Of a stretch of DNA of 64,000 nt, positions 2,071 to 55,021 are shown piece by piece. The notes beneath the pieces were generated by a model. The model did no database searches, had not been told where the DNA came from, and saw nothing but the letters and a program-made list of their open reading frames with translations. Both the position numbers and the translations under genes were made by a program. The DNA comes from Oscillospiraceae bacterium. Lineage in GTDB: Bacteria; Bacillota; Clostridia; Oscillospirales; CAG-272. The DNA is taken from contig SVSL01000005.1 of the NCBI GenBank assembly GCA_015064315.1, positions 182-64,181 of the forward strand. Direction: 5' to 3'. The first letter of the stretch is position 1. Each line of letters opens with the position of its first letter.

Positions 2071-3005
2071 TGGAAATCCTCCTCAGGTTCATGAAAGAAT
2101 TGAATGATATAGGGCTCGTCGCCATGGAAACCGATCTCACAGCGCGAAAGAATCCAGGTCTTTCCGCCGTCGGGACTGCCTTGATAGAACAGATAGATCC
2201 TTCCGTCATCATCGATGAAAACGTAGGGGTGTCCCGATTCGGATGCGTTCCAGTCGCCCTCCTTGCCGCAGGGCAGGAATGGATGATCAAGAGGCTTTAC
2301 AAAATGAACGCCATCCTCGGACACCGCGTAGCCGATCTGTTGAGGCGTACAGTTGTAGGAGCCGCCGTAAAACAGATAGACCTTGTTGTTCCGTACCAGC
2401 GTTGCCGCCGCCTCAATACACTTGCCCTCCCAAGGATATTCGGGAGAAAGGATGGGGGCGTTTACCGCCTGCGTCCATTGGTCACGGGAGTAGTCCGAGC
2501 CGAGAGGGGCGTAGGCGCAGCCCTGCATCTGGATCTTGAAGTCCTTGTCACGGGTTGCGATATAGAGGAAGAGCTTGTCTCCAAAGGCAACCACGTCGGC
2601 ATCAATGGCGCGACCGCAGCACCAGTCAGCGGTGGGGCGAAAGATGGGATTGGTGGGGTCTTTTTCAAAGTGAATGCCGTCACGCGAGGTGGCGTGGCAG
2701 ATGGCGTCTCTTTCCCGATTTCCGTAGGTTTGGTAAAAGAGATGAACCACGCCGTTCTCCACGTACGCCGCGGGAGCACCAATGCCTTTTTCTTCACATT
2801 CCTGCGTGAGCGGAAGAAAATCAACGAACGTCCAGTGCTCCATATCGCTTGACGTGGCAATGGCAACGATGAGGCGATCCTTGTCTCCGGGGTTCTTTCC
2901 CGAAATGAAGGAGCTGTGATAGAGATAGTAGGTGTCTCCCAGCCGAATAACGGCGGGATCCTTGGCGAATTTTTCTTTTGAGCCGTGACTGTCGGTGTAA
3001 AGCAT
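2067..3005 (-). CDS. Five-bladed beta-propeller glycoside hydrolase (GH43-like)
   Basis: 312 aa with repeated hydrophobic-strand/Asp patterns (DPAVIRLGDTYYLY, GAPAAYVENGVVHLFY, IEAAATLVRNNKVYLFY). The family assignment is made by eye. Confidence 0.65.
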   Translation of the reverse strand: MLYTDSHGSKEKFAKDPAVIRLGDTYYLYHSSFISGKNPGDKDRLIVAIATSSDMEHWTFVDFLPLTQECEEKGIGAPAAYVENGVVHLFYQTYGNRERDAICHATSRDGIHFEKDPTNPIFRPTADWCCGRAIDADVVAFGDKLFLYIATRDKDFKIQMQGCAYAPLGSDYSRDQWTQAVNAPILSPEYPWEGKCIEAAATLVRNNKVYLFYGGSYNCTPQQIGYAVSEDGVHFVKPLDHPFLPCGKEGDWNASESGHPYVFIDDDGRIYLFYQGSPDGGKTWILSRCEIGFHGDEPYIIQFFHEPEEDFQ

Positions 3006-3009
3006 GGCG

Positions 3010-4044
3010 TTACCTTTCTGCTTTTTCTACTGCCTCGAAAAGACCGTAGAGATAGGTTGCGCCAAGGGCTCTGTCAAAGAGACCGTAGCCGGGCTTGCCG
3101 TCCTCGCCCCAGATGTTTCTTCCGTGGTCGGGACGAACGTAGCCGTCAAAGCCGCTTTCCACAAGAGCTTTCACGATTCCGTACATATCAAGGCTTCCGG
3201 TCTCGGTCAGGTGACCGCTCTCGCAGAAGTCCAGCTCGCCCTCGTGTCGGATCTGACGCAGATGGGCAAAGTAAGAGCGAGGCGCCAGAAGGCGCGCCAT
3301 GGCAACCATATCGTTGTCGCGTCCCGCGCCCAGAGAGCCGGTGCAAAGGGTAATGCCGTTGTGGGGATTGGGAATGGCGGTAAAGAGCTTGTTGTAGCTG
3401 TCCATACCCGTGATGATACGGGGCAGACCGAACATATCCCACGGCGGGTCGTCGGGATGAATCGCCATATTGATGCCGGTCTCGTCGCAGGCGGGCATAA
3501 TGCCTCTCAGGAAGTAGACCAGATTGTCGAACAGAGTCTCGTGGCTCATATCCTTGTAGGAATCCAGAAGGGCGTTGAGCTGATCCGAGGTGTAGCTTTC
3601 ATCCCAGCCGGGCAGATGCAGGTTCTTGGGATCCAGACGCATCAGCTCCTCGTGGCAGTAGGAAAGCGAGTTGGAGCCGTCCTCCGCAAGGGTGTGCAGA
3701 TTGGTGCGGAGCCAGTCGAACACGGGCATAAAGTTGTAGCAGATGCACTTGACACCTACCTTGCCCAGATTGCGGATGGTTTGGGCATAGTTGGCAATGA
3801 GTCGGTCACGGGAGGGAAGACCCAATTTGATGTCCTCGTGAACCGGAACGCTCTCAATAACCTCCATTTCCAGTCCGTTTTGGTCGCAGAGCTCCTTGAG
3901 GCGCAGGATGCGATCCATGGGCCATACCTCGCCCACGGGAATGTCGTAAACGGCGGTTACAACGCCGCTCATGCCGGGAATCTGGCGAATGTAGGAAAGC
4001 GGAATGCTATCGCTTTCGCCGTACCAGCGAAACGTCATTTTCAT
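3010..4044 (-). CDS. uxuA: Mannonate dehydratase
   Basis: MKMTFRWYG...VVTAVYDIPVGEVW...CYNFMPVFDWLRT...HPDDPP...MCTGS closely parallels E. coli UxuA. I chose the start at 4044 because AAGGAG lies 10 nt upstream. Confidence 0.88.
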   Translation of the reverse strand: MKMTFRWYGESDSIPLSYIRQIPGMSGVVTAVYDIPVGEVWPMDRILRLKELCDQNGLEMEVIESVPVHEDIKLGLPSRDRLIANYAQTIRNLGKVGVKCICYNFMPVFDWLRTNLHTLAEDGSNSLSYCHEELMRLDPKNLHLPGWDESYTSDQLNALLDSYKDMSHETLFDNLVYFLRGIMPACDETGINMAIHPDDPPWDMFGLPRIITGMDSYNKLFTAIPNPHNGITLCTGSLGAGRDNDMVAMARLLAPRSYFAHLRQIRHEGELDFCESGHLTETGSLDMYGIVKALVESGFDGYVRPDHGRNIWGEDGKPGYGLFDRALGATYLYGLFEAVEKAER

Positions 4045-12138: not shown

Positions 12139-13494
12139 ATGAAAACAAACCGTAATTTTTGGCGCATCGTTACGCTTGCTCTGGCACTCGTAATGCTGTT
12201 CTCCGTTGTTGCTTGTAGCAACGAGGAAGAGCCCGCAGCTACCACTGAGGCAGGCGCAGACGGCTCCACCCAGGCTCCTACTACTCAGAAGCCCACGACC
12301 GAAAAGCCCACTACCAGCACTACTGCTCCCACCACTGAGCCCACTCAGGGTACTACTGCTACTACCGAGCCTACCACCGAGCCCACCACTGAGCTCGAGG
12401 CTTACTCTGTAGTAATGCCCTCCGAGTTTGACGCTGACGGTGACGGCGTAAACGATTCTTACACCTTCTCTAACAAGCTTCCTGCTCTCTTTGCAGGCAC
12501 TGGCGTAGTTACGCTTGGTTGTGACGATCACCTGGAAACCGATAAGGGCGTTGGTCGTACCGAAGGTGTAAAGGGTAGCGGCGTTTATCACGTTTACATC
12601 GACCTTTCCAAAGAGGATGTTCCTCACGAAGAGAAAACTCTGACTTGGGAATTTGAGGTTGCTGAGGCTGGCACCTACGAGATCTGCTTCAACATGAGAA
12701 TGAAGGATGGTAAGCAGAGAGGTAATGTCATGACTATTGATGGCGGTGCTGCCATGGCTATGGACTTCCAGTTCATGAACGGCGCAGAGGTATCTGTTCG
12801 CGATGCAGATTTGAACTCTTACATGACCGGTATTTCCGTTGACTTGACCGCAGGCAAGCACACCATTCAGATAAAGTATAATTCTCTTTGCGAAAAGACC
12901 TTCCATTTCCGTAACATCTATATTGCAAAAACCAATAAGGTTACTGTAGAGATGCCCTCTAATTTCGACAACGATAACGACGGCACGAATGACTCCTATA
13001 CTTTTTCTAACTATCTGCCCATCAGATTCGGTGCAGCAGATGTGATCAAGCTTGGTTGTGACGATCACCTGGAAACCGATAAGGGCGTTGGTCGTACCGA
13101 AGGTGTAAAGGGTAGCGGCGTTTATCACGTTTACATCGACCTTTCCAAAGAGGATGTTGCTCACGAAGAGAAAACTCTGACTTGGAAGTTTAATGTTCCT
13201 GCTGACGGCAAGTATGAGTTCTGCTTCAACATGAGAATGAAAGACGGTAAGCAGAGAGGTAACGTAATGACCATTGATGGTGGTAAGTCCATCAATATGG
13301 ACTTCCAGTTCAATAACGGTGCAGAAGAAAATGTTCGCGATGCTGATCTGAATTCTTACATGACTGGCATTTTTGCTGATCTGACTGCCGGAGAGCATAC
13401 GGTTGTTATGACCTATCAGCCTTTGTGCGAAAAGACCTTCCACTTCCGCAATATTTACCTCGTAAAGGTTGCAGAGCTGACTCCCGCAGTTTAA
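12139..13494 (+). CDS. Secreted lipoprotein with a Thr/Pro-rich linker and two tandem CBM-like (galactose-binding-like) modules
   Basis: Signal peptide with lipobox LFSVVAC, a TTEPT-type linker, and two ~179-aa modules (WEFEVAEAGTYEICF / WKFNVPADGKYEFCF). Confidence 0.85.
   Translation: MKTNRNFWRIVTLALALVMLFSVVACSNEEEPAATTEAGADGSTQAPTTQKPTTEKPTTSTTAPTTEPTQGTTATTEPTTEPTTELEAYSVVMPSEFDADGDGVNDSYTFSNKLPALFAGTGVVTLGCDDHLETDKGVGRTEGVKGSGVYHVYIDLSKEDVPHEEKTLTWEFEVAEAGTYEICFNMRMKDGKQRGNVMTIDGGAAMAMDFQFMNGAEVSVRDADLNSYMTGISVDLTAGKHTIQIKYNSLCEKTFHFRNIYIAKTNKVTVEMPSNFDNDNDGTNDSYTFSNYLPIRFGAADVIKLGCDDHLETDKGVGRTEGVKGSGVYHVYIDLSKEDVAHEEKTLTWKFNVPADGKYEFCFNMRMKDGKQRGNVMTIDGGKSINMDFQFNNGAEENVRDADLNSYMTGIFADLTAGEHTVVMTYQPLCEKTFHFRNIYLVKVAELTPAV
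12403..13491 (+). repeat. Intragenic tandem duplication (2 x ~537 bp) with an identical core
   Basis: 12513..12621 equals 13050..13158 (109 nt identical, offset 537 nt), and the match continues to about 12650/13187 with one mismatch. Confidence 0.85.
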
Positions 13495-13544: not shown

Positions 13545-13571
13545 CCCCCCACGGCAATGCCGTGGGGGTTT
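13545..13571 (+). terminator. Intrinsic terminator
   Basis: CCCCCACGGC-aat-GCCGTGGGGG followed by TTTT. Confidence 0.75.
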
Positions 13572-13581
13572 TGCTATGCAG

Positions 13582-13760
13582 AGTGAAATGTTTTGCTCTT
13601 GCAAAACGTGAAATAATGTGCTAATGCACATTGTGAAATATCTCGCTTTGCTCGATGTGAAATGAAATTTGCCCACATTTGCGAAGCAAATATTTCAAAC
13701 GCCGCAGGCGTATTTCACATTTCGCAGAGATATTTCACTTGCCCGCAAGGGCAAATTTCG
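13582..13760. repeat. GTGAAAT-anchored hairpin array (4 forward and 3 reverse units)
   Basis: GTGAAAT at 13582, 13607, 13632 and 13656, each followed by a different hairpin. ATTTCAC at 13711 and 13731 and ATTTCG at 13754 are each preceded by a hairpin. Confidence 0.8.
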
Positions 13761-13989
13761 TTGGCGTTGTGCCAGGGGGCACAACGCCATGCCGTGGGGG
13801 TTTTTGTGCTTTTTTGGGGGAAAATCAATGTTTTTTGCCAAAAGGTATTCCTATTCTCAAAAAGTTGTGATATAATGGGGAGGATAAAAGAACGTTGCAG
13901 AAAACGGGCGATGGGGTCTCCGAACGAATTTCCGTATTCCCTCGTGCAGAGAAAACGCCGAACGTGCGGCGAGCCTTCCTTGTTTGATC

Positions 13990-14062
13990 GTAGGGGCGAC
14001 CATTGGTCGCCCGTATGCAAGGATAAGATTTTTTAGAGCGGGCGTTTAAAGAACGCCCCTAC
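13990..14062. repeat. GTAG...CTAC twin-hairpin doublet
   Basis: GTAG-GGGCGACC-att-GGTCGCCC (13990..14013) and GGGCGTT-taaag-AACGCCC-CTAC (14040..14062). Confidence 0.75.
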
Positions 14063-14126
14063 GGGTTTGTGCGGAATTCACAATTGATGTGTTACCTTTG
14101 AGCGGAGCGGGATGTTTGCAATTTCC

Positions 14127-14154
14127 TGTAGGGACAGGCGTCCTCGACTGTCCG
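14127..14154. repeat. Solo 28-nt REP-like arm
   Basis: TGTAG-GGACAG-GCGTCCTCGA-CTGTCC-G, identical to 62689..62716. Confidence 0.7.
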
Positions 14155-14211
14155 GAAACGATAAAATTTCCGTTCCGTATCGGCTTGTTGATGCGGTTTG
14201 AATTTCTTGCC

Positions 14212-14340
14212 TGTAGGGGGCGACGTCCTCGACGCCCCGAAAAACGAAAGAATTTTCAATTTGCATCCGGCTATTATCTGTAGCCATATAAAAAGCAAAA
14301 TTTGTTGCTTTCCGGGGCGTCGAGGACGTCGCCCCCTACA
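14212..14340. repeat. REPIN/MITE-like element with perfect 28-nt inverted arms
   Basis: TGTAGGGGGCGACGTCCTCGACGCCCCG (14212..14239) and its exact reverse complement (14313..14340). Confidence 0.85.
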
Positions 14341-14398
14341 AGCAAATTTTTTACCATATCCAAACGCCGAACGTGCGGCGAGCCTTCCTTGTTTGATC

Positions 14399-14473
14399 GT
14401 AGGGGCGATTCACGAAGCGCCCGTTTGAAAAGAATAAGATTTTTACAGGCGGACGACCAATGGTCGCCCCTAC
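14399..14473. repeat. GTAG...CTAC twin-hairpin doublet
   Basis: GTAGGGGCGATTCACGAAGCGCCCG (14399..14423) and GGCGGACGACCAATGGTCGCCCCTAC (14448..14473). The 35-nt upstream flank is shared with 13955..13989. Confidence 0.75.
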
Positions 14474-14705
14474 AGGTTTGTGCGCAATCTATCGTTTTTT
14501 GTGTCACCCTGAGCGGAGCAGGGATGTTTGCATTCGTTTATCCCCCCTCTTCAACTAACGTTGGTGAGCAGATAGGGTGGTGGTCCCTAGCTGCTCGCGG
14601 GAGCAATTCTACTGTCTGTCCGTGCTCTGACAAATTACGGCAGGGTGTCTTGGGATAGGGACTAAAACGTTCCCGATTTTATTTCAACTACCAAAAAACT
14701 TTTCT

Positions 14706-14830: not shown

Positions 14831-16042
14831 TTACCATTGCTTCAGTCGCTTTTTAGCGGCTTCGGCGTAGGCGGAGAGATCGGGCTCTTCCCACGATTTG
14901 TTACAGGAAAATCCCAGCGTTTGGGGGAGACGATAATCGGGCAGATTATCCCGCAGGGTCAGCTCTTCGCGAATGGCTTGCAGATAGTTAAAGCCGAACT
15001 CAAGGCTGGGGGAAACGTAATGCCCCTCGTCCCATTCGTTCCAGTTGTCGATCATAAGGAGACGGTTGGCGTAGCTCTCCTTGGGGAGGCTTTCCATGCG
15101 CTCCAAAAGCTTTTGAAGGAGTATGCGGAAGCTTTCGGGAGAGAGCTTCCAGTTCCGAGCCCAACGCTCGGGGGTGTTTTCCATGAGAATGCCTTTTTCA
15201 ATGCGCGGAGAGGGATCCCACATACAGGACGCCGTGGGCACAAAATAGTCGGGAAGATTTTTGATGCGCAGATCGGTGTCGTCCAATTGCTTTTGAATGA
15301 CTTCCTCGTCGGTGGGGTAATTCAGCTTGACCGAATGACAGTAGGCAAAGCTGAAATCGTACCCACGTGCGCGAAAATCTTCAAATACCGAGAGATCATC
15401 CTTGCGATATTCGGCGGCAAAGATCATGCCGTCAAAGCCCCTCTCTTTTGCCATTTCGCGGCAGAGATCAAAGACACGCGCTTGTTCTTTGGCACTTCCA
15501 AAGGCATCTGCAAGCTGCTTTTGCACGTCGTAAACGAAGAGAACAGGCTTGTTGTCGATCTTGAGATAATTTTCCTTGGAAAAATAATGCTCCAGCCAGA
15601 AGGGCATGAGATTTTCGATCATGTCTTGGCTGTCGGATGCCCCCCAGGCACCTTGCGTTTCAAACATGATGGAGAATTTCATTTGCTTTCCGTGCTTGGC
15701 GCGGAACAGCCCTTCGTGGATGCCGTGGGCGCAACGGAGGTCTTCCACCGTTACTTTTTTGCCCACGTTGTGCTTTCTGCGGTACCAGCAGTAGATCCAG
15801 CAGTTGATGCCGTGCTCCAAGCACCATTTGATCTCCCAGTCGGTAACGGCAGGGTCTTCCTCGTCGTAGTATCCCATCAAGGGGGTGCGCTCGGGGTAGG
15901 AGTGGATCTCGGGAAAGCCCTCGTGCAGCTCCGCCGCGCCTTTTTTCCATGCGGGATAGTAGTGGGCGGCAATGATGCGGTCCTCTTTAACGGTGACCGT
16001 TCTCGGATCGGGCATTTCGTCGTACAGATGAATGTTATACAT
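14831..16042 (-). CDS. WbsX/GH99-like domain protein (putative glycosidase)
   Basis: HYYPAWKKG near the N-terminus and NWNEWDEGHY near the C-terminus, as in WbsX-like TIM-barrel proteins. The family call is made by eye. Confidence 0.6.
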   Translation of the reverse strand: MYNIHLYDEMPDPRTVTVKEDRIIAAHYYPAWKKGAAELHEGFPEIHSYPERTPLMGYYDEEDPAVTDWEIKWCLEHGINCWIYCWYRRKHNVGKKVTVEDLRCAHGIHEGLFRAKHGKQMKFSIMFETQGAWGASDSQDMIENLMPFWLEHYFSKENYLKIDNKPVLFVYDVQKQLADAFGSAKEQARVFDLCREMAKERGFDGMIFAAEYRKDDLSVFEDFRARGYDFSFAYCHSVKLNYPTDEEVIQKQLDDTDLRIKNLPDYFVPTASCMWDPSPRIEKGILMENTPERWARNWKLSPESFRILLQKLLERMESLPKESYANRLLMIDNWNEWDEGHYVSPSLEFGFNYLQAIREELTLRDNLPDYRLPQTLGFSCNKSWEEPDLSAYAEAAKKRLKQW

Positions 16043-24438: not shown

Positions 24439-25518
24439 ATGAACAAGGTGATTATCAACGAAAAAAAGCATACCGACCTTAAAACCGCTGACTTTTTCTA
24501 CGATCTGCCGGAGGCTTTGATCGCTCAGCATCCCATGGAGCAGCGTGATCATTCGAGACTCATGGTGCTGGACCGAAAGAACCAAACGCTGGAGCATAAG
24601 CATTTTTTTGATATTCTGGAGTATCTGGAGCCTGACGACGTTCTTGTCATCAACGATTCCAAGGTGATCCCCGCACGTCTGTTCGGACACGTGGAGGGCA
24701 GGGAGGAGGCTCTTGTGGAGCTTCTGCTTCTGCGCCAGCGCGATCTTGACGCATGGGAGACTTTGGTAAAGCCCGGAAAGCGTGCCCGTGTGGGGATGCG
24801 CATCGTCTTTGGCGGCGGCATCCTTGTGGGCGAAATCACCGACATTGTGGAGGAGGGCAACCGCATCATCCAATTTGAATACGATCATGAAAAATACGGC
24901 AATATCTACGAGATCCTACAGGAGATCGGGCTTATGCCTCTGCCGCCCTACATCACCGAGCAGCTGAAGGACAATGCTCGCTATCAGACGGTCTACGCCC
25001 GTGAGGAGGGCTCGGCGGCAGCTCCCACGGCAGGGCTTCATTTCACGCCCGAATTGTTGGAAAAGATCAAGGCAAAGGGCGTTGCCATCGCTCCCGTCAT
25101 GCTTCACGTGGGACTTGGAACCTTCCGCCCCGTCAAAGCCGAGAGCATTAACGATCACGTCATGCACACCGAATTTTTCTCGGTTCCCGAGGAGAGCGCA
25201 AGAATCATCAACGAGAGAAAAGCGCGGGGCGGACGCCTGATCTGCGTGGGAACCACCTCCTGCCGCACCATCGAGTCGGTGGCAGAGGAGAACGGACATA
25301 TTCCCGCTATGAGCGGAGACACGGGGATCTTCATCTATCCCGGCTACCGCTTCAGGGCGGTGGATGCCCTCATCACCAATTTCCATCTGCCCGAAAGCAC
25401 CCTGCTCATGCTGGTCTCGGCGTTCTACAACCGAGAAAAGGTCATGGAAGCCTACCACACGGCGGTGGAGGAAAAGTATCGTTTTTTCAGTTTTGGAGAC
25501 GCGATGCTGATACGATAA
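24439..25518 (+). CDS. queA: S-adenosylmethionine:tRNA ribosyltransferase-isomerase
   Basis: [15 protein letters not shown]...[26 protein letters not shown]. Confidence 0.92.
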
Positions 25519-25826
25519 AAGATTTTATCGTATCAGCAGGTAAGAGGTAATAGGTAAGAGTGAAGAGGTAATGAAGATTTTCGCCCACGGCGAAAATCAA
25601 CCAAAATTATTCACTTTTCACTTTTACTTTTTACATCGCGTACCCTCGCGGACGCGATGCTGATCGTATAAAAGATTTTATCGTATCAGCAGGTAAGAGG
25701 TAATAGGTAAGAGTGAAGAGGTAATGAAGATTTTCTCCCACGGCGAAAATCAACCAAAATTATTCACTTTTCACTTTTACTTTTTACATCGCGTACCCTC
25801 GCGGACGCGATGCTGATCGTATAAAA
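25498..25826 (+). repeat. Tandem repeat, 153-bp period, 2 full copies plus a partial one, starting inside the last 7 codons of queA
   Basis: GACGCGATGCTGA recurs at 25498, 25651 and 25804. The copies differ at only a few positions. Confidence 0.9.
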
Positions 25827-25833
25827 ATAACCC

Positions 25834-25896
25834 GTAGGGCGGGGGCTTGCTCCCGCCGAAAGATAAAAGGAAGGCGGCACCAAGGCACCGCCCTAC
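25834..25896. repeat. GTAG...CTAC twin-hairpin doublet (variant GGGCGG core)
   Basis: GTAGGGCGGGGGCTTGCTCCCGCC ... GGCGGCACCAAGGCACCGCCCTAC. Confidence 0.65.
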
Positions 25897-25963
25897 AAGC
25901 GATTTCTCATATCCCGTACACTACGCGGACGCGATGTTTATTCAATAAAAGAAAAATCACACG

Positions 25964-26011
25964 GTAGGGGCGACCATCGGTCGTCCGCGGACGTGCAATG
26001 CACGCCCCTAC
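25964..26011. repeat. Back-to-back GTAG...CTAC twin hairpin
   Basis: GTAGGGGCGACCATCGGTCGTCCG-CGGACGTGCAATGCACGCCCCTAC. Confidence 0.7.
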
Positions 26012-26108
26012 GGAAAAGTTTTTTAAACCTATTGACAACAGTTTACTCGTTCGGATTTGTAAAGATTGATCTCATGATTCACGATCCATCTTTTGGAAAG
26101 GAGCCCCT

Positions 26109-34444: not shown

Positions 34445-34777
34445 GTTTTTAAAACACCAAGATCGTGCCGCAAGGCACGGACAAAAACGATGACCGGAAA
34501 GAAGTAGCTTCTTCCAAGCATCCGTACAGAGAGCTGTCGGTTGGTGCGAGACAGACGGAACGGGAGAGTGAATACATTCCGAGAGTTGTGTACCGAAAGA
34601 GTCGGGATCCGATCCATCCCATACGGCTCCGGTAGAGTGCATCGGGTGCGCCCGTTATCGCGTAAAGGGTATGTTAGTACCCTATGAGGCCGTATTCGTG
34701 AGGATACGGTGAATTGAGGTGGTATCACGAGATAAGTATATCCCGTCCTCTGTTATTCGCGGAGGGCGGGTTTTTTT
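34445..34777 (+). promoter_or_regulatory. T-box riboswitch leader (tRNA-sensing antiterminator), candidate specifier UAC (Tyr)
   Basis: The conserved elements occur in canonical order: AG box AGAGAG (34528), distal loop GGUGCGAG (34543), GAA-UAC-A (UAC at 34573..34575), F-box CCGUUA (34652..34657), T-box GAAUUGAGGUGGUAUCACG (34711..34731), and a terminator at 34742..34770 with a U7 run. Confidence 0.82.
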
Positions 34778-34836
34778 GTCCCTTCGTTCTCAAAAAAAGG
34801 AGATGGATTCTCCCAAAAAAAGAAAGGAAGGTTGTT

Positions 34837-36345
34837 ATGACAATCAAAATTTTACTTCTCGTTGTTTTCGTCGGCATCACCGTTCTCGTTGGTGTCACGT
34901 GCCGTAAGCATTCCACAAACGTGGACAGCTTTGTTCTTGGCGGACGCTCGGTAGGCCCTTGGCTTACCGCCTTCGCATACGGAACCTCCTACTTTTCGGC
35001 GGTGATCTTCATCGGCTACGCCGGGCAGTTTGGCTGGAGATTCGGGCTTGCTTCCACTTGGATCGGAATTGGAAACGCCTTGATCGGATCTCTCTTGGCT
35101 TGGGTGGTTCTTGGATCGCGCACCCGCGCCATGGCGCAGCACTATGGAAGCTCCACCATGCCCGATTTTTTTGGCAAGCGTTACGGATCAAACGCTCTCA
35201 AGATCGCGGCAGCTCTCATCGTATTCGTATTTCTCATTCCTTACACCGCATCCCTGTACAACGGACTTTCCCGTCTGTTTGAGATGGCGTTCCGCGTGGA
35301 CTACACGGTCTGCATCGTCGCAATGGCGATTCTGACCTGCGTTTACGTGGTGGCAGGCGGCTACATGGCAACCGCCATCAATGATTTCTTGCAGGGAATG
35401 ATCATGCTCATCGGCATTGTTGCCGTGGTGCTGGCGGTGCTCAATACCAACGGCGGCTTGACCGAGGCGGTCAGATCTCTTGGAGAGATCTCCGACAAAA
35501 GCGTTGCCACAGGGGATTTTACCTCGATCTTGGGCCCCGATCCCTTCAATCTGATCTGCGTGATCATTCTGACCTCTCTCGGTACTTGGGGGCTTCCGCA
35601 GATGGTGGGAAAATTCTACGCCATCAAGGATCGGCAGGCGATTCGGAAGGGAACCGTCGTTTCCACCGTGTTTGCGCTGGTGGTTGCCGGCGGATGCTAC
35701 TTCCTTGGAGGCTTTGGCAGACTGTACGCCGCGGAGGTTCCCACCAATGAAAAGGGCGTGATCTACGACGCGATCATTCCCACCATGCTCCAAAAGCTTC
35801 CCGATCTGCTCATTGCCGTCATCGTGGTGCTGGTGCTTTCGGCATCCATGTCCACCCTGTCCTCGCTGGTATTGACCTCCTCCTCCACCATGACGCTGGA
35901 TCTGATCAAAGGGAAGCGTCAGATGAAGGAGAAAAAGCAGGTTCTCATCATGCGTGTGCTCATTGTTTTCTTCGTGGCGGTATCCTCGGTGATCGCCGTT
36001 TTGCAGTACAAGTTTGGATTTGCGTTTATCGCTCAGCTCATGGGACTTTCCTGGGGCGCGTTGGCAGGGGCGTTCCTCGCTCCCTTCCTCTACGGCTTGT
36101 ACTGGAAGCGCACCTCCGGAGCATCGGTTTGGGTATGCTTCGGCTTTGGCACGGTTGTCATGCTGGTCAACACCTTTGCGCCCTCCCTGTTTCCCGCGTG
36201 GCTGCGTTCTCCCATCAACTGCGGCGCGTTCGTTATGCTGGCGGGGCTGGTGATTGTTCCCATTGTTAGCCTTCTTGCCCCCAAAAAGGTAGAAAATCAA
36301 GTAGAAGAAGCGTTTTCTGCCTTGAAAAATGCAGAAAAAGATTGA
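34837..36345 (+). CDS. Sodium:solute symporter (SSS family, PutP/PanF-like)
   Basis: About 13 TM helices and an N-terminal region typical of the SSS family. AAAGGAAGG ribosome site before the ATG at 34837. Confidence 0.82.
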   Translation: MTIKILLLVVFVGITVLVGVTCRKHSTNVDSFVLGGRSVGPWLTAFAYGTSYFSAVIFIGYAGQFGWRFGLASTWIGIGNALIGSLLAWVVLGSRTRAMAQHYGSSTMPDFFGKRYGSNALKIAAALIVFVFLIPYTASLYNGLSRLFEMAFRVDYTVCIVAMAILTCVYVVAGGYMATAINDFLQGMIMLIGIVAVVLAVLNTNGGLTEAVRSLGEISDKSVATGDFTSILGPDPFNLICVIILTSLGTWGLPQMVGKFYAIKDRQAIRKGTVVSTVFALVVAGGCYFLGGFGRLYAAEVPTNEKGVIYDAIIPTMLQKLPDLLIAVIVVLVLSASMSTLSSLVLTSSSTMTLDLIKGKRQMKEKKQVLIMRVLIVFFVAVSSVIAVLQYKFGFAFIAQLMGLSWGALAGAFLAPFLYGLYWKRTSGASVWVCFGFGTVVMLVNTFAPSLFPAWLRSPINCGAFVMLAGLVIVPIVSLLAPKKVENQVEEAFSALKNAEKD

Positions 36346-49482: not shown

Positions 49483-49517
49483 ACTTTTCATTTTGCATTT
49501 TGCACTTTGCATTTTCA
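49483..49517. repeat. Run of five heptads A(C/T)TTT(G/C)C
   Basis: ACTTTTC ATTTTGC ATTTTGC ACTTTGC ATTTTCA. The last unit overlaps the stop codon of the minus-strand LRR gene. Confidence 0.7.
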
Positions 49518-51170
49518 CTCCCACGCCGTGGGGATGCCGTCCACGTATCGCCAGTATTTGCCGGCGGTATTGGGTTGAACTTCGGAGTAGTAATAGATGG
49601 TGGCGGAGGTGAGGGATTCGTTGCCGGAATCAATGGCGATTGCACTCCATTCTTGCGCTGTGCCACCATAATAAACAATCTTGAGTTTATCGCAATATTG
49701 GAATGCATAGTAGCCAATGCTTGTGACTCTATCGGGAATGGTGATGTTGGTAAGATTACTGCAACCCGAGAATGCACACCAATTAATACTTGTGACATTA
49801 TTAGGAATAGATATTCTAGTAAGGCTAATGCAATCCGAGAATGCGTGCCAATCAATGATTGTTACGCTACTGGGGATGGATATGCTGGTAAGGCTGCGAC
49901 AATTTGAGAATGCGTTGCAGTCGATGTTTGTGATGTTATCAGGTAAGGAGATACTAGTTAGACTACTGCAATGCGAGAAAGCTCCCTTGCCAATGCTTTT
50001 CAAACTGTTGCCAAGAAAGATGTCCGTAATATTACTGCAACCCGAGAACGCATAATCGCCAATTCCGATTGCGTTTTGGCGCAAAACAGCATTTGTTACA
50101 TTTGTGTCACAGGCAATCACCCATTTGTCAACATAGGATATTCCGTTTTCCACTTGGATAAGGCTATTGCAACCTTTAAACGCATCCTCACCAATACTGA
50201 CCACGCTATCCGGAATAAATATGCTGGTGAGGCTATTGCAACCAGAGAAAGCCTTAGGGGCAATGCTTGTCACGTTATTGCCAAGAGTAACACTTGTAAG
50301 ATTGGTGCAACAGCAGAATGCCAGTTGCCCAATGTTAACTACACCATTTCCGATAATAACGGAGGTAAGGCTATTGCAAAAATAAAATGCGCCCTCGCCA
50401 ATGCTTATCACACTATTTGGAATGGATATACTAATAAGGTTTGCGCAATCGTAGAATGCCTGCCGTCCAATGCTTGTTACACCATTAGGAATGGATATGT
50501 CAGTAAGACTGTTACAACTATGGAACGCACTATCGCTAATGCTTGTAACATTATCGGGAATGGTGATGCTTGTAAGGCTACTGCAACTATGGAACGCACT
50601 ATCGCCAATGCTTGTAACATTATCGGGAATGGTGATGCTTGTAAGGCTACTGCAACTATGGAACGCACTATCGCCAATGCTTGTGACATTATTGGGGATA
50701 ATGATACTGGTGATTTTATTGCAATTATAAAATGCCCCCTTTGCAAGACCTGTTACAGTATCTCCATTAGGGGAAGTCGGGGGGATCAAAATCTTGGAGG
50801 ATGTACAGGTGCCGATTCCACTAATATAACAAGTGCCGTCCTGGTTAGAAGTGAATTCCAGCCCGGAACTAAACTCTAGTCCACATACAGTACAGACATT
50901 ATTCTCGCACTTGTGACCGTTGATACAAGGATCCGTGGGATTTATGGGATCCGTTGGCTGAGTGGGAATTTCATTCGTTCCAACGGTGCCCGTTGTCTTT
51001 TGCTCTGAATCTATAGGAACGGTTATGTTTTCTTCGAAAGTTTGTTTTGGACTGTTAGGACTATTATTCTGCTTGGCATTCTCACCAGAATCACAAGCTG
51101 TCAATAGCATTGCTACGCATAATAATAGGATACAAGTGCTGATCCAACATTGTTTTTTGAACTTCTTCAT
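49515..51170 (-). CDS. BspA-type leucine-rich-repeat surface lipoprotein
   Basis: Lipobox LLTAC and many 23-aa repeats (IPDNVTSIGDSAFHSCSSLTSIT). AAGGAGG ribosome site. Confidence 0.85.
   Translation of the reverse strand: MKKFKKQCWISTCILLLCVAMLLTACDSGENAKQNNSPNSPKQTFEENITVPIDSEQKTTGTVGTNEIPTQPTDPINPTDPCINGHKCENNVCTVCGLEFSSGLEFTSNQDGTCYISGIGTCTSSKILIPPTSPNGDTVTGLAKGAFYNCNKITSIIIPNNVTSIGDSAFHSCSSLTSITIPDNVTSIGDSAFHSCSSLTSITIPDNVTSISDSAFHSCNSLTDISIPNGVTSIGRQAFYDCANLISISIPNSVISIGEGAFYFCNSLTSVIIGNGVVNIGQLAFCCCTNLTSVTLGNNVTSIAPKAFSGCNSLTSIFIPDSVVSIGEDAFKGCNSLIQVENGISYVDKWVIACDTNVTNAVLRQNAIGIGDYAFSGCSNITDIFLGNSLKSIGKGAFSHCSSLTSISLPDNITNIDCNAFSNCRSLTSISIPSSVTIIDWHAFSDCISLTRISIPNNVTSINWCAFSGCSNLTNITIPDRVTSIGYYAFQYCDKLKIVYYGGTAQEWSAIAIDSGNESLTSATIYYYSEVQPNTAGKYWRYVDGIPTAWE
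50521..50727 (-). repeat. Three near-identical 69-bp tandem repeats inside the LRR gene
   Basis: ATGGAACGCACTATCGC recurs at 50521, 50590 and 50659 (69-nt period, equal to one 23-aa LRR). Confidence 0.88.
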
Positions 51171-52969: not shown

Positions 52970-53359
52970 TTGTTACGTGCCGAAATTGTTAAAGAAATGT
53001 CCATGCCTTATGAGACATTGGTAGAATACTTGCTTGTGAAATATGGTGGGGCTATAGGAGATTATTTTTCTACACCAGAATGTAAAACAAAAAACAAAAA
53101 AGCAGTACGAACAGCGGAGGGACTGTATTGCCACCACATAGACGAAGACAAAGGAGGAAATTTGTCTAATCCTTGTTCAGCAAGACGGCAGCCTTTTGAA
53201 TGGCAAAAAAAAGAAAGATTGGTGTATTGCAATTTATTGGAGCATTTGATACTGCATATAAAGATTGCTATTCTAAGACAAAAAACAAAATTCAAAAAAC
53301 CTCTGACCTCAAAGATTTTTTTACTACAGGCGGGGTGTTTATGGTATGCCAAGAAATAA
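52970..53359 (+). CDS. Small hypothetical protein with an HNH-like (His-His...Asn...His) signature, in the AT-rich islet
   Basis: The TTG start lies 8 nt after AAGGAG (52956..52961). The motif is YCHHIDEDKGGNLSN...LVYCNLLEHLILH with four Cys. The 3' end is uncertain because of the overlap with the next ORF. Confidence 0.5.
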   Translation: MLRAEIVKEMSMPYETLVEYLLVKYGGAIGDYFSTPECKTKNKKAVRTAEGLYCHHIDEDKGGNLSNPCSARRQPFEWQKKERLVYCNLLEHLILHIKIAILRQKTKFKKPLTSKIFLLQAGCLWYAKK

Positions 53360-54318
53360 ATGATATGTTCAGAATGAATGGAACTACTGTATCCTATAAA
53401 CAATGTTGCTATAAACAGTTTGAGGACAATTATGAAGAATATATATGTATTTTGAAAACCGTTTTGTGTTACCTCGAGCTCAATTATGAAGGGGATAAAA
53501 ATACAGAGACGCTCTTTAAAAAGGGGAGAGTGATCGATCATTCGGGCATTCAAGGAGTGGTAGAAGATTATCATGAGTTAGGGGGATGGATTGTTGTAAA
53601 GAAAACTAACGGAGAGACGGAAAAAATTCCGAAATATGTGCTTGAGGGAGTGTTTGGATCATTGTTTTCTTATAGTGATCGAATGAATGCCGTTAGAAGA
53701 GATTTGTCGCTTGGCTACAGAGACTTTTATAGGACAATATTTGAAGAGTTGTCTGTGAAAGATTGTTCAACGATGAAAAAGTGGTGTGACTTATTATCGG
53801 TTGACTATACGGGTTATGGACATGTTCAGTTTTCCAAGATTCATTTGGACAAAAATATATATGGCTCTGAGAATGCAGATGAATATGTATCTAAAGCGTA
53901 CCCGGCTTTGCATGCTTCTACCTTCAATACAGATCAAAAAGAGATTGTTTTTTGGAGGGGAGATTTCCCTGAAGATATACTAAAAAGTGATTGCTTTTAC
54001 ATTGTTAGGATTGAAACTTCTTTCAAAATAAAGGAAGGTGAAATTCCGTTTGTAAAATATAAAGAGCGGGATTTTTTAAGAAGACCGCTTCTTGGACTAA
54101 CAAATACGTATAATCTGCTGCAACATGAAATAATTTTACACACATCTGACTTGTATTCTGAAAAAGACAATAAATACTATAGTCAATACAAAAACTTGGA
54201 GGGTAAGATTTGTGATGCAACAGTCAAGCTTACATTGACTAAAGGGGATTTTGAATTGTTCAAGGAAAGACATTATATTAGAACGCTAAAAATTTTAGAT
54301 GGATGCTATTTTCGATAA
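53341..54318 (+). CDS. Hypothetical protein (325 aa from the ATG at 53341; the ORF is open from 53200), in the AT-rich islet
   Basis: This is a long AT-rich ORF in a window where random AT-rich ORFs of this size are unlikely. GGCGGGG lies upstream of the ATG at 53341. I recognise no domain. Confidence 0.55.
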   Translation: MVCQEINDMFRMNGTTVSYKQCCYKQFEDNYEEYICILKTVLCYLELNYEGDKNTETLFKKGRVIDHSGIQGVVEDYHELGGWIVVKKTNGETEKIPKYVLEGVFGSLFSYSDRMNAVRRDLSLGYRDFYRTIFEELSVKDCSTMKKWCDLLSVDYTGYGHVQFSKIHLDKNIYGSENADEYVSKAYPALHASTFNTDQKEIVFWRGDFPEDILKSDCFYIVRIETSFKIKEGEIPFVKYKERDFLRRPLLGLTNTYNLLQHEIILHTSDLYSEKDNKYYSQYKNLEGKICDATVKLTLTKGDFELFKERHYIRTLKILDGCYFR

Positions 54319-54350: not shown

Positions 54351-54737
54351 ATGGAAATTTTTGAACTTGCCGCAGAGCTCGGCAAAAAGCTGAAGGATGA
54401 CGCACGCCTGATCGCTTTGGAGGATGCCAAGAAGGCATACGAGGGAAGCGCAGAGCTGAAGAAGTATATGATCGAATACGAGGTTCAACAAAAGGCAATG
54501 CAGGCAGAGGTCGCAAGAGCTGACAGAGATATGCAGATGGTCGAGGTGATTCAGAAGCGTATTGACGAGCTTTACAGACTTATCGCGCAGCACCCCGTAT
54601 TCGTGGAGCTGGATCGCGCGCAGGCAGAGGTCAACGAGCTGATGAACGCGGTCAACAACACCATCATGACCCAGATCACCGGTCAGGAGCCCTCGAGCTG
54701 CACCCACAACTGCGCTACCTGTGGCGGATGCCACTGA
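54351..54737 (+). CDS. YlbF/YmcA (RicF/RicA) family regulatory protein with a Cys-rich C-terminal tail
   Basis: Helical YmcA-like sequence (LGKKLKDDARLIALEDAKKAYE...IDELYRLIAQHPVFVELDRAQ). It occupies the position between miaB and mutS, as ymcA does in B. subtilis. Confidence 0.75.
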   Translation: MEIFELAAELGKKLKDDARLIALEDAKKAYEGSAELKKYMIEYEVQQKAMQAEVARADRDMQMVEVIQKRIDELYRLIAQHPVFVELDRAQAEVNELMNAVNNTIMTQITGQEPSSCTHNCATCGGCH

Positions 54738-54739
54738 GC

Positions 54740-54854
54740 AAATTCTGCGGTGCAGAATTTGCAGTGAAATACGGCTTCGCCGTGTGAAATTCGCCTATGG
54801 CGAGTGAAATCGATTGCAAGCAATCGGTGAAATACGCCTGCGGCGTGTGAAAAA
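54740..54854 (+). repeat. GTGAAAT-anchored hairpin array (5 units) preceded by a 10-bp hairpin
   Basis: CAAATTCTGC-ggt-GCAGAATTTG, then GTGAAAT at 54765, 54785, 54805 and 54828 and GTGAAAA at 54848. The stems are ACGGC/GCCGT, TCGCC/GGCGA, CGATTGC/GCAATCG and ACGCC/GGCGT. Confidence 0.85.
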
Positions 54855-54967
54855 ATCTTTGGAGACGAACAGAAAAAAGCGTTCTCCGCTTTCAATTTCA
54901 AAGCTTTTCAATACAAGCTTTTAACTGCAAATAAAATTGGTTTTGCGCAAGCAAAACCTACATCAAC

Positions 54968-55002
54968 TATTCACTTTTCACTATTCACTATTCACTATTC
55001 AC
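54968..55002 (+). repeat. Five tandem heptads T(A/T)TTCAC abutting the mutS ribosome-binding site
   Basis: TATTCAC TTTTCAC TATTCAC TATTCAC TATTCAC, then TTG-AAAGGAG (55005..55011) and the ATG at 55022. Confidence 0.85.
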
Positions 55003-55021
55003 TTGAAAGGAGCCTCCCGCC

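Follow-up and report, generated by a model that had tools for sequence, protein, structure and literature searches.

In a 64,000-nucleotide (nt) stretch of the genome of an Oscillospiraceae bacterium (GenBank assembly GCA_015064315.1, contig SVSL01000005.1, positions 182 to 64,181; hereafter 'the window', G+C content 52%), two arrays of short hairpins joined by the constant heptamer GTGAAAT can be securely identified as copies of the Gut-1 RNA family (Rfam RF01706). We name these array 1 (13582-13763) and array 2 (54763-54853). By the evidence assembled below, Gut-1 is a modular repeat dispersed through intergenic regions in uncultured gut Clostridia, and found in Akkermansia too; it does not look like a single conserved small RNA (sRNA) gene. 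Four aspects of the family are new here: the arrays always lie just 3' of a gene or a tRNA, in sense orientation; array 1 is a discrete, conserved composite of 182 nt that the 77-nt Rfam model does not cover; the stems pair almost purely by Watson-Crick rules and have strongly polar loops; and, at the ylbF-mutS site, arrays turn over between close relatives. The reading that we prefer, at a probability of about 0.4, is that Gut-1 is an accessory hairpin-array repeat akin to repetitive extragenic palindromic (REP) sequences and bacterial interspersed mosaic elements (BIME): a co-transcribed 3' trailer with a constant linker that would be read by some factor, a mechanism that we infer with reservations, a role at the DNA level being a serious rival.

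Both loci of the window are members of the Gut-1 family

An Rfam scan of the window yielded two Gut-1 matches, at 13687-13763 on the - strand (79.4 bits, E = 3e-14) and at 54762-54838 on the + strand (59.4 bits, E = 3e-9), both of which exceed the family's gathering score of 50 bits; the forward half of array 1 (13581-13668, + strand) reaches 39.2 bits, below that score. Three consecutive hairpins joined by GUGAAAU, with covarying stems, are also evident from the model alignments and from the covariation described below. The motif was introduced by Weinberg et al. (2010, Genome Biol 11:R31; PMC2864571) from 43 members in gut metagenomes and was typed there as a non-cis-regulatory RNA; the Rfam type label is 'Gene; sRNA'. 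The family's model (RF01706) consists of three hairpins with GUGAAAU between them; the ends of this linker, AU and GU, are drawn as closing pairs (A-U, U.G), so that GAA is unpaired. The published seed alignment already has a terminator close upstream, members with GUGAUAU linkers, and convergent AUAUCAC units (PMC2864571). After 2010, the searchable literature holds nothing on Gut-1 or GUGAAAU. The module grammar, for which the original prediction knew of no named repeat class, is therefore already known through Gut-1, a family that is catalogued but functionally unexplained.

Like the published members, the arrays of the window consist of three or more hairpins with GUGAAAU. They and their relatives differ from the published picture in being assigned to metagenome-assembled genomes (MAGs) of Clostridia and Akkermansia from ruminant and other animal guts, in having 3 to 5 modules that are orientation-locked to an upstream gene or tRNA and are gained or lost between close relatives, and in often being part of the 182-nt composite.

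Could the arrays be a chance clustering of heptamers, or one local duplication limited to two loci? The number of GTGAAAT copies in the window, 15, is not unusual (the mean of shuffled sequences is 10.4, and 11 of 100 shuffles reach 15). Nevertheless, 10 of these 15 sites are inside the two arrays, and chains of at least three anchors at unit spacing occur twice, versus never in 200 shuffles. There are six anchors in the window with a perfect hairpin of at least 5 bp before them, all of them inside the arrays. Taken with the Rfam E-values, and with homologues in dozens of genomes, these data refute such an explanation. Nor are the arrays one local duplication, in keeping with the first interpretation of the sequence: the same grammar recurs in many of at least 120 loci from other genomes, plus metagenome and IMG/VR contigs.

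The architecture originally predicted for array 1 was borne out upon inspection of the sequence: the + strand copies of GTGAAAT start at 13583, 13608, 13633 and 13657, with the claimed spacings of 25, 25 and 24 nt, and the forward and reverse hairpins are present as described. Three details need amendment: a unit said to be shared by 13698-13717 and 54828-54847 as an exact reverse complement matches at 19 of 20 bases; homology with other genomes puts the limits of array 1 at 13582 and 13763; and array 2 has, in addition, a leader hairpin and a fifth, degenerate linker.

Arrays follow genes and tRNAs in the sense orientation

Approximately 29 of 29 arrays are in sense orientation to the gene or tRNA upstream, with zero counter-examples among stand-alone arrays. 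We used Pfam to check the open reading frames (ORFs) upstream of 12 arrays in other loci: 12 of 12 are genuine genes on the array's strand that end 20-100 nt before it (HTH, P-type ATPase, PMT_2, MreB, DprA, DegV, SmpB, ScpB, BcrAD-type ATPase, HMGL-like and, in Akkermansiaceae, XerC-like), and the competing ORFs on the opposite strand at these arrays have no Pfam matches. Gene calls beyond this set are our own ORF calls. In the window, the YlbF-family gene upstream of array 2 obeys the same rule. A same-strand tRNA gene, of varied identity, is situated 30-130 nt upstream in about 16 of 30 loci; Gut-1 scores above threshold at 16 positions in loci outside the window, each time on the strand of the adjacent tRNA (short-stem half). 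Genes downstream of stand-alone arrays are either co-directional or convergent.

The boundaries of the arrays are also stereotyped. An array starts with CA(G/A)(T/C)GAAAT, either 0-3 nt past the T-run of a terminator or past a leader hairpin behind a stop codon, and it often ends with GT(G/T)AAGGAAG or GTTGAGGAGG, plus a further hairpin. In at least six protein-gene cases (loci L059, L096, L114, L129, L076 and L383) there is no terminator before the array and a terminator-like hairpin after it, so that the array would sit inside the transcript, as a 3' untranslated region.

Array 1 is a conserved composite with two competing pairings

Searches with blastn and nhmmer found about 35 full-length homologues of array 1 among the fetched loci, all in unrelated flanks. 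For the closest of these the similarity is 75-83%; it starts and stops exactly at 13582 and 13763, and it is these points, with unrelated sequence on either side, that define the 182 nt of array 1.

We counted covariation on the RNAalifold structure of 30 aligned composites, which contains three forward hairpins (hp1, hp2 and hp3) and a 12-bp long-range helix between 13663-13674 and 13749-13760. Of all cells in this alignment 96.9% are paired, and 25 of 36 pairs have changes on both sides, a degree of covariation that none of 500 shuffles reached (0/500); in slid controls, 32-46% of cells are paired. The proposal that the stems vary and yet stay paired is thereby upheld. Another part of that proposal, templated snap-back synthesis, receives no direct support: orthologous hairpins vary by ordinary paired substitutions. 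Given that the stems are nearly all Watson-Crick and that their changes are nearly always two-sided, a palindrome-correcting process at the DNA level could also be at work.

The long-range helix is itself well maintained: 98.9% of its cells are paired, with two-sided changes in 7 of 12 pairs. Its variable element X (TTGCCC in the window) occurs in at least seven variants, and in 26 of 30 composites the exact complement of X directly precedes the terminal ATTT. X has the same sequence as the 5' arm of the last local hairpin, so that this hairpin and the long-range helix are mutually exclusive; both of these competing pairings are maintained in the composites. In 21 of 30 sequences the + strand has U.G in this helix where the - strand has C.A, which is weak evidence that the helix, if used, would be used on the + strand. 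The predicted folding of the composite has z = -6 on either strand.

The flanks of the composites recur as well. A bidirectional terminator forms the right flank of about 22 of the 30 composites, and directly next to it comes a convergent tRNA gene, 3' end first (Ala, Trp, Ser, Thr, Glu, Gln, Asn or Tyr); on the tRNA strand this arrangement reads ...CCA-G-A6-stem-T6-CAACGAAAT... One terminator stem (GCACTTGC...GCAAGTGC) recurs by different tRNAs in different MAGs; terminator and composite travel as the same module beside different tRNAs. The left flank is another terminator, or the promoter of a divergent gene. The window's own copy is without a tRNA neighbour, and its halves face two convergent protein genes.

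Might the composite instead be a free-standing gene for a trans-acting sRNA, for example a multivalent sponge that titrates a GUGAAAU-recognising protein or RNA? Composite and terminator together would then give an RNA of ~210 nt. Covariation and the strong predicted structure on either strand are what one would expect of such a gene, a hairpin and T-run follow the + strand of the composite in most loci, and Weinberg et al. placed Gut-1 among the non-cis-regulatory RNAs (PMC2864571); moreover, TGTGAAATAAT at the second linker looks like an extended -10 box, which we treat as a lead only. Yet our promoter scan found no sigma-70-like promoter in either locus of the window, no conserved motif precedes the 30 composites, and stand-alone arrays begin so close to a terminator or stop codon that there is no room for a promoter. 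It is also atypical of a trans-acting sRNA gene to be present in several copies per genome, with different hairpins, and to be patchy among close relatives. We consider this explanation distinctly unlikely: neither in the two loci of the window nor among the 30 composites do Gut-1 arrays show the promoter of an independent transcription unit, a point that bears on the type label and not on membership of the family.

Gut-1 is dispersed among gut Clostridia and turns over rapidly

Our counts from sequence collections are samples, not censuses. An exact-pattern scan of one-genome-per-species contigs yielded the at least 120 loci mentioned above; most loci among the matches listed are in MAGs of Clostridia, Eubacteriales, Acutalibacteraceae, Oscillospiraceae, Ruminococcaceae or Christensenellaceae from ruminant, horse, chicken and human guts, a few are Akkermansia or Akkermansiaceae, and the remainder are unrelated tandem repeats. 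The binning of MAGs may err (e.g., the 'Bacteroidaceae' label of L014). Rfam scores Gut-1 above threshold in a sample of these loci, including two from Akkermansia, L015 (three matches) and L019. In IMG/VR we recognised about 13 true arrays among 120 pattern matches listed; the annotated phage collection gave one unverified 'bacteriophage' contig, and the plasmid collection zero matches. The closest relatives of the window are entries named 'MAG: Clostridia bacterium' from sheep, goat, deer and cattle gut, along with human-gut sequences. A single MAG may carry multiple arrays (L070, L072, L073 and L082; L016 and L017), and three were counted within the 64-kb window.

Arrays of other types were noted alongside Gut-1. 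In L015 (an Akkermansia sp. MAG), positions 2100-3330 hold three tandem copies of ~440 nt, each comprising a ~250-nt conserved block that has no Rfam match, a Gut-1 array, and a second array, again with TNNC loop polarity, whose constant linker is (A)CGAGATT. Hairpin arrays with the constant linker ATGATG (CATCAT on the other strand) occur in L017 (~3590-3700, - strand reading) and L027 (1078-1180); those of L017 are separated from a Gut-1 array by the terminator behind it and have the opposite polarity, and the whole ~270-nt block is in tandem duplicate.

The ylbF-mutS intergenic site, which houses array 2, permits a comparison across relatives that we found through YlbF homologues (identities are relative to the window). 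At 100% YlbF identity (L001-L010) the array is kept, with loop changes and one C-to-T change that gives U.G; in some of these strains a different hairpin-rich block replaces the sequence immediately after the array. At 90% (L254), leader and array are duplicated whole, in tandem. At 88% (L255) the array is the same, with loop changes and paired stem changes in unit 3. In three relatives at 80% (L257, L381 and L382) the leader hairpin is homologous, the linkers are GTGATAT and the hairpins are different; in a fourth at 80% (L383) there is a GTGAAAT array with window-like units in a different order, together with a 280-nt insert and an additional leader. In L256, L258, L259 and L260 (84-76%), the spacer is 30-46 nt long, without an array, and holds only the mutS ribosome-binding site. 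An idea that we abandoned is that each lineage is locked to one linker: L381 and L383 have identical YlbF and flanking genes that are 92-94% identical in nucleotide sequence, and at this one site they carry, respectively, a GTGATAT array and a reordered GTGAAAT array.

It follows from these spacers that the array is accessory to ylbF and mutS. The elements are accessory in general: close relatives are without them at the same site. The strain comparison that had been proposed as a check for gain and loss of units thus uncovered an empty site, a tandem duplicate, reordered units and a changed linker, a pattern which indicates that the ylbF-mutS array is gained, lost, duplicated and exchanged within a short timescale.

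Hairpin loops of the arrays are polar

Another feature to emerge is the asymmetry of the hairpin loops. In a census of 263 distinct units, read in the GTGAAAT orientation, the loop-closing pair is C-G in 222; triloops are TNC in 87 instances versus GNA in 3, and tetraloops are TNNC in 60 versus GNNA in 0. The base preceding TGAAAT is G in 243 units, A in 18, T in 2 and C in 0. The same polarity is seen in arrays with GTGATAT, CGAGATT (Akkermansia) and ATGATG linkers (L017, L027). By contrast, 75 terminator-like hairpins of the same loci have no loop polarity, and so the polarity is special to the arrays; the conjecture that neighbouring terminators favour GNRA loops in the sense strand was rejected on the same evidence.

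A model for array function, and its difficulties

We can now describe the Gut-1 module as a constant, purine-rich 7-nt linker, GUGAAAU (with variants GUGAUAU and AUGAAAU), plus a short, GC-clamped and perfectly paired hairpin with the apex c(UNC)g or c(UNNC)g. Three to five such modules make up an array, which directly follows a stop codon or an intrinsic terminator and always has the orientation of the upstream unit. In our preferred reading, the array would be co-transcribed with the upstream gene, or be reached through terminator read-through, as a 3' trailer. Since each stem is different, we propose that each hairpin folds locally (the centroid structure of array 2, z = -3.7, consists of exactly four local hairpins with the linkers free), such that the RNA would be a string of autonomous hairpins that displays the same short linker several times. 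Such an RNA could serve 3' ends in the manner of REP/BIME, by blocking 3' exonucleases and read-through, and could also be a multivalent landing pad for a factor that reads linker plus hairpin. A reader of this kind is the most economical idea; the same factor, or else recombination between copies, might account for the spread, homogenisation and swapping of arrays. Array 1 is the composite form, which unites a forward and an inverted array with a long-range helix in competition with the last hairpin.

Several points weigh against this reading. Both transcription of the arrays and their function at the RNA level are what we infer, and no trans-acting factor for the arrays was identified. A barrier function alone does not explain the invariant heptamer. 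The tRNA cases have a strong and often bidirectional terminator between tRNA and array, and many composites have a terminator at either end, with the consequence that they would be present in read-through RNA alone. The stems display no RNA-type wobble signature on either strand: their pairs number 1435 Watson-Crick, 13 G.U, 22 A.C and 57 other, and stem changes in the composites are nearly always two-sided. (Terminator-like hairpins of the same loci have 53 G.U and 32 A.C among 1540 pairs.) Finally, the loops are c(GNA)g and c(GNNA)g when read on the ATTTCAC strand; such sequences are reported to form exceptionally stable mini-hairpin loops in DNA (Hirao, Yoshizawa, Nakano and colleagues). 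The loop polarity would thus point to DNA, or to the other strand. We dropped a further argument, for a strand bias from wobble pairs: a filtered count of 17 A.C versus 3 G.U became 22 versus 13 when counted without bias (p = 0.18).

These difficulties are the substance of a second explanation, the main rival, which we rate as somewhat unlikely: that Gut-1 is an element of DNA, the hairpins of which matter as single strands on the ATTTCAC side or as cruciforms. The heptamer would then be a recognition or cleavage handle for a DNA enzyme (HUH/RAYT-like, or otherwise structure-specific) or the double-stranded site of a protein that reads heptads, the arrays would be selfish, REPIN-like units, and any transcription would be incidental. 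The almost purely Watson-Crick stems and the C-G-closed GNA and GNNA loops on one strand, unlike those of ordinary terminators, fit this explanation, as does the recurrence of the polarity with the GTGATAT, CGAGATT and ATGATG linkers. Further in its favour are the REPIN-like architecture of the composite (an inverted repeat with a long-range helix), the gain, loss, duplication and swapping of arrays at one site, their presence in two phyla of one habitat, and tandem linker-like heptads without hairpins, (ATTCACT)5 at 54966-55003. However, strict co-orientation with the upstream gene follows transcription and is unexpected of mobile DNA, unless insertion is directed by terminators. Target-site duplications were not seen, save for one 19-nt repeat in the window (see below), and the stems are not conserved within a genome, unlike those of REPs. 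Between paired arrays in four loci, a place where a cognate Y1/HUH transposase might be sought, there are no transposase-like or other cognate genes; housekeeping operons lie there instead (thiW-thiM-thiE, HD and metallophosphatase genes, a methyltransferase).

A more specific version, unlikely in our estimation, is that Gut-1 is a self-propagating hairpin-array element, the Firmicute counterpart of REPINs, in which an enzyme reads the 7-nt handle together with the adjacent perfect hairpin on the single strand that bears the c(GNA)g loops. This enzyme would copy, swap or extend modules at terminator-proximal sites, which would account for Watson-Crick-only stems, homogeneous linkers, reshuffled units, the tandem duplication of arrays and their presence in two phyla.

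The polarity of the loops might also be read as a sign that the other RNA strand is used, in that it favours hairpins on the ATTTCAC strand. There, a unit consists of a stable hairpin with the pyrimidine linker AUUUCAC behind it, and an array might insulate against incoming antisense transcription: it could serve as a series of weak terminators, or as a compact site for Rho loading, and so stop polymerases that approach the gene or tRNA from its 3' side. A composite would insulate in both directions. It fits that arrays adjoin bidirectional terminators, that UCA or UC is present in every linker variant on this strand, and that our terminator scan picks up the last unit of array 1. We nevertheless regard insulation as very unlikely: the linkers hold just 2-4 U, no other unit passes that scan, two - strand terminator-like sites are already present between mutS and array 2 (terminator scan), and the invariant heptamer is left unexplained.

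Whichever of these explanations applies, Gut-1 has been an orphan since 2010, without organism, context or function. Our analysis places it in Clostridia and Akkermansia MAGs and supplies its grammar: a stop codon or terminator, a leader, n linker-hairpin modules, and optionally an inverted half with the long-range helix. It behaves as an accessory, rapidly exchanged repeat and not as a fixed regulatory RNA; for annotation, Gut-1 arrays should not be labelled as independent sRNA genes by default. If a linker-reading factor does exist, then a major and mostly uncultured part of the gut microbiota would possess a REP-like system, with consequences for the biology of mRNA 3' ends, for genome plasticity in the vicinity of tRNA genes, for strain typing, and for breaks in metagenome assemblies.

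Comparison with other repeat systems

Among the close analogues are the REP/BIME/REPIN elements of Enterobacteria and Pseudomonas, with their RAYT transposases. These are also short extragenic palindromes with a short, conserved, single-stranded tag by the stem, present in many copies at gene 3' ends or between convergent genes, with inverted members in clusters, and variable between strains; the roles proposed for REP/BIME are mRNA 3'-end protection and termination. Gut-1 arrays are likewise numerous, extragenic, enriched at 3' ends and strain-variable. They differ in that REPs have a GTAG tag and nearly one stem per genome, whereas Gut-1 units share the 7-mer GTGAAAT alone, their stems are all different, and they are mostly direct tandems with a fixed linker and an orientation locked to the upstream gene. 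In the four loci with paired arrays, no RAYT-like gene turned up beside them.

The window also has clusters of GTAG plus GC-rich palindromes, in both orientations, at 13950-14480 and 25830-26015 (e.g., cGTAGGGGCGACcattgGTCGCCC and GGGGCGTCGAGGACGTCGCCCCCTAC). These look like a classical REP/BIME family, separate from Gut-1, which makes Gut-1 a second class in this genome. The cluster at 13950-14480 contains two copies of a ~170-nt repeat, with short matches in L013 and L024.

The BOX elements of Streptococcus pneumoniae (boxA-boxB(n)-boxC) are another modular intergenic repeat of Firmicutes, with variable internal modules and predicted stem-loops, near genes. Their modules are 45-60 nt long and sequence-conserved, without a constant linker between variable palindromes, and they are not known to have a strict 3'-sense placement.

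A CRISPR array has a similar alternation of constant and variable parts, and (G/A)UGAAAU is faintly like the AUUGAAA(C/G) end of the CRISPR repeat. The constant part of Gut-1 is 7 nt versus 23-50 nt, the variable part is a self-complementary hairpin of 9-18 nt versus a unique spacer of 26-72 nt, and Gut-1 hairpins recur across genomes; we rejected this assignment, the sole match to CRISPR-DR57 being noise (14.3 bits, E = 4.8). Tandem intrinsic terminators were set aside too: the linkers are GUGAAAU or AUUUCAC, and the one unit to pass the terminator scan is the last of array 1 (13739-13754 plus ATTTCGTTGG). Also rejected was a type III toxin-antitoxin locus, in which ToxI-like identical repeats of 34-45 nt precede a toxN-like gene: the units here are 20-25 nt with stems that differ and, unlike with ToxI-like arrays, the genes downstream are unrelated to each other (mutS, GH38, GNAT and others).

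Features and surroundings of the two arrays

Features of arrays 1 and 2 and their immediate flanks (window coordinates).
Feature	Position	Strand	Description
Intrinsic terminator	13546-13572	+	CCCCCACGGCA-a-TGCCGTGGGGG + TTTT, of gene 12139-13494; array 1 begins 10 nt beyond
Array 1, forward long-stem half	13582-13668	+	A-GTGAAAT, hp1, GTGAAAT, hp2, GTGAAAT, hp3, GTGAAAT-GAAAT
hp1	13590-13607	+	GTTTTGC-tctt-GCAAAAC
hp2	13615-13632	+	AATGTGC-taat-GCACATT
hp3	13640-13656	+	ATCTCGC-ttt-GCTCGAT, imperfect
Long-range helix, 5' strand	13663-13674	+	TGAAAT + X (X = TTGCCC); partner 13749-13760
Central hairpin and linker	13677-13698	+	ATTTGC-gaa-GCAAAT (13677-13691), then degenerate reverse linker ATTTCAA
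Array 1, inverted short-stem half	13687-13763	-	CAACGAAAT, TTGCCC-ttgc-GGGCAA, GTGAAAT, imperfect hairpin, GTGAAAT, ACGCC-tgc-GGCGT, TTGAAAT
Reverse unit	array 1 inverted half		ACGCC-gca-GGCGT + ATTTCAC
Reverse unit, imperfect	array 1 inverted half		ATTTCGCAGAGAT + ATTTCAC
Last reverse unit	hairpin 13739-13754		TTGCCC-gcaa-GGGCAA + ATTTCG
Long-range helix, 3' strand	13749-13760	+	X' = GGGCAA + ATTTCG; overlaps 3' arm of hairpin 13739-13754
Flanking hairpin	13762-13805		TGGCGTTGTGCC-aggg-GGCACAACGCCA, then TGCCGTGGGGGTTTTT; right of array 1
Array 2, leader hairpin	54738-54762	+	GCAAATTCTGC-ggt-GCAGAATTTGC; starts 1 nt past ylbF-like stop codon (54735-54737)
Array 2	54763-54853	+	A-GTGAAAT x4 + GTGAAAA; hairpins 54771-54783, 54791-54803, 54811-54826, 54834-54846

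On the + strand, array 1 runs from the forward modules through GTGAAAT-GAAAT-TTGCCC and the central hairpin to three hairpin-ATTTCAC units, and its end is ATTTCGTTG; the - strand copies of GTGAAAT are at 13712-13718 and 13732-13738. The array is intergenic. To its left is a + strand, surface-protein-like gene (12139-13494) with weak Big_3, CBM_35 and GOLD matches, and to its right, about 1 kb away, a - strand WbsX-like gene (14831-16042). In the close strains L011 and L012, array 1 is identical throughout, and hence uninformative.

A 19-nt direct repeat (13554-13572 / 13786-13804) brackets array 1, its copies being GCAATGCCGTGGGGGTTTT and GCCATGCCGTGGGGGTTTT: on the right, TGCCGTGGGGGTTTTT repeats the 3' half of the left terminator, and the left arm of that terminator can also pair with the right copy, 233 nt apart. 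This repeat looks like a target duplication or a split terminator. Flank alignments revealed no such bracketing repeat at other composites, and transposon-style insertion was discarded as a candidate on the grounds that their flanks are without target duplication. Within the repeat-rich 1-kb spacer to the right (window 13858-14036) there is TTGTGATATAATGG, a strong sequence of the extended -10 type, with GGGGAGG and a possible short TTG-start ORF behind it; for want of a -35 match, this sequence escaped the simple promoter scan.

Array 2 is sense both to the YlbF-family gene upstream (54351-54737) and to mutS downstream (from 55022, 170 nt beyond); its fifth linker, at 54847, is the degenerate GTGAAAA. 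The tandem heptads at 54966-55003, (ATTCACT)x5.4, immediately precede the mutS ribosome-binding site, with no hairpins between copies. Their unit is the complement of AGTGAAT, i.e., the Gut-1 linker less one A. The copy number is 5 to 7 in strains L003-L007, and the repeat is present in L254 and absent in L255 and L257. These heptads could pair with the array linkers of the same transcript, or serve as an operator for a heptad-binding protein. Further upstream, between a radical-SAM (MiaB-like) gene and ylbF, is an ORF of 372 aa (53200-54318) with no Pfam match; this insert is missing in some strains (L003, L004), in which the two genes are closer together.

Other repeats and leaders of the window

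A 153-nt tandem repeat (2.2 copies, 98% identical) occupies 25498-25826. Each copy has purine heptads (AGGTAAG, AGGTAAT, AGTGAAG), a hairpin (GATTTTCGCC-cac-GGCGAAAATC) and pyrimidine heptads (TTCACTT), the purine and pyrimidine runs being roughly complementary. Tandem repeats of 69 nt, in 2.0 and 2.6 copies, are at 49760-49895 and 50515-50696, inside or near a long - strand ORF (49515-51170). A T-box leader (108.7 bits) lies at 34481-34753, upstream of a + strand ORF (34714-36345).

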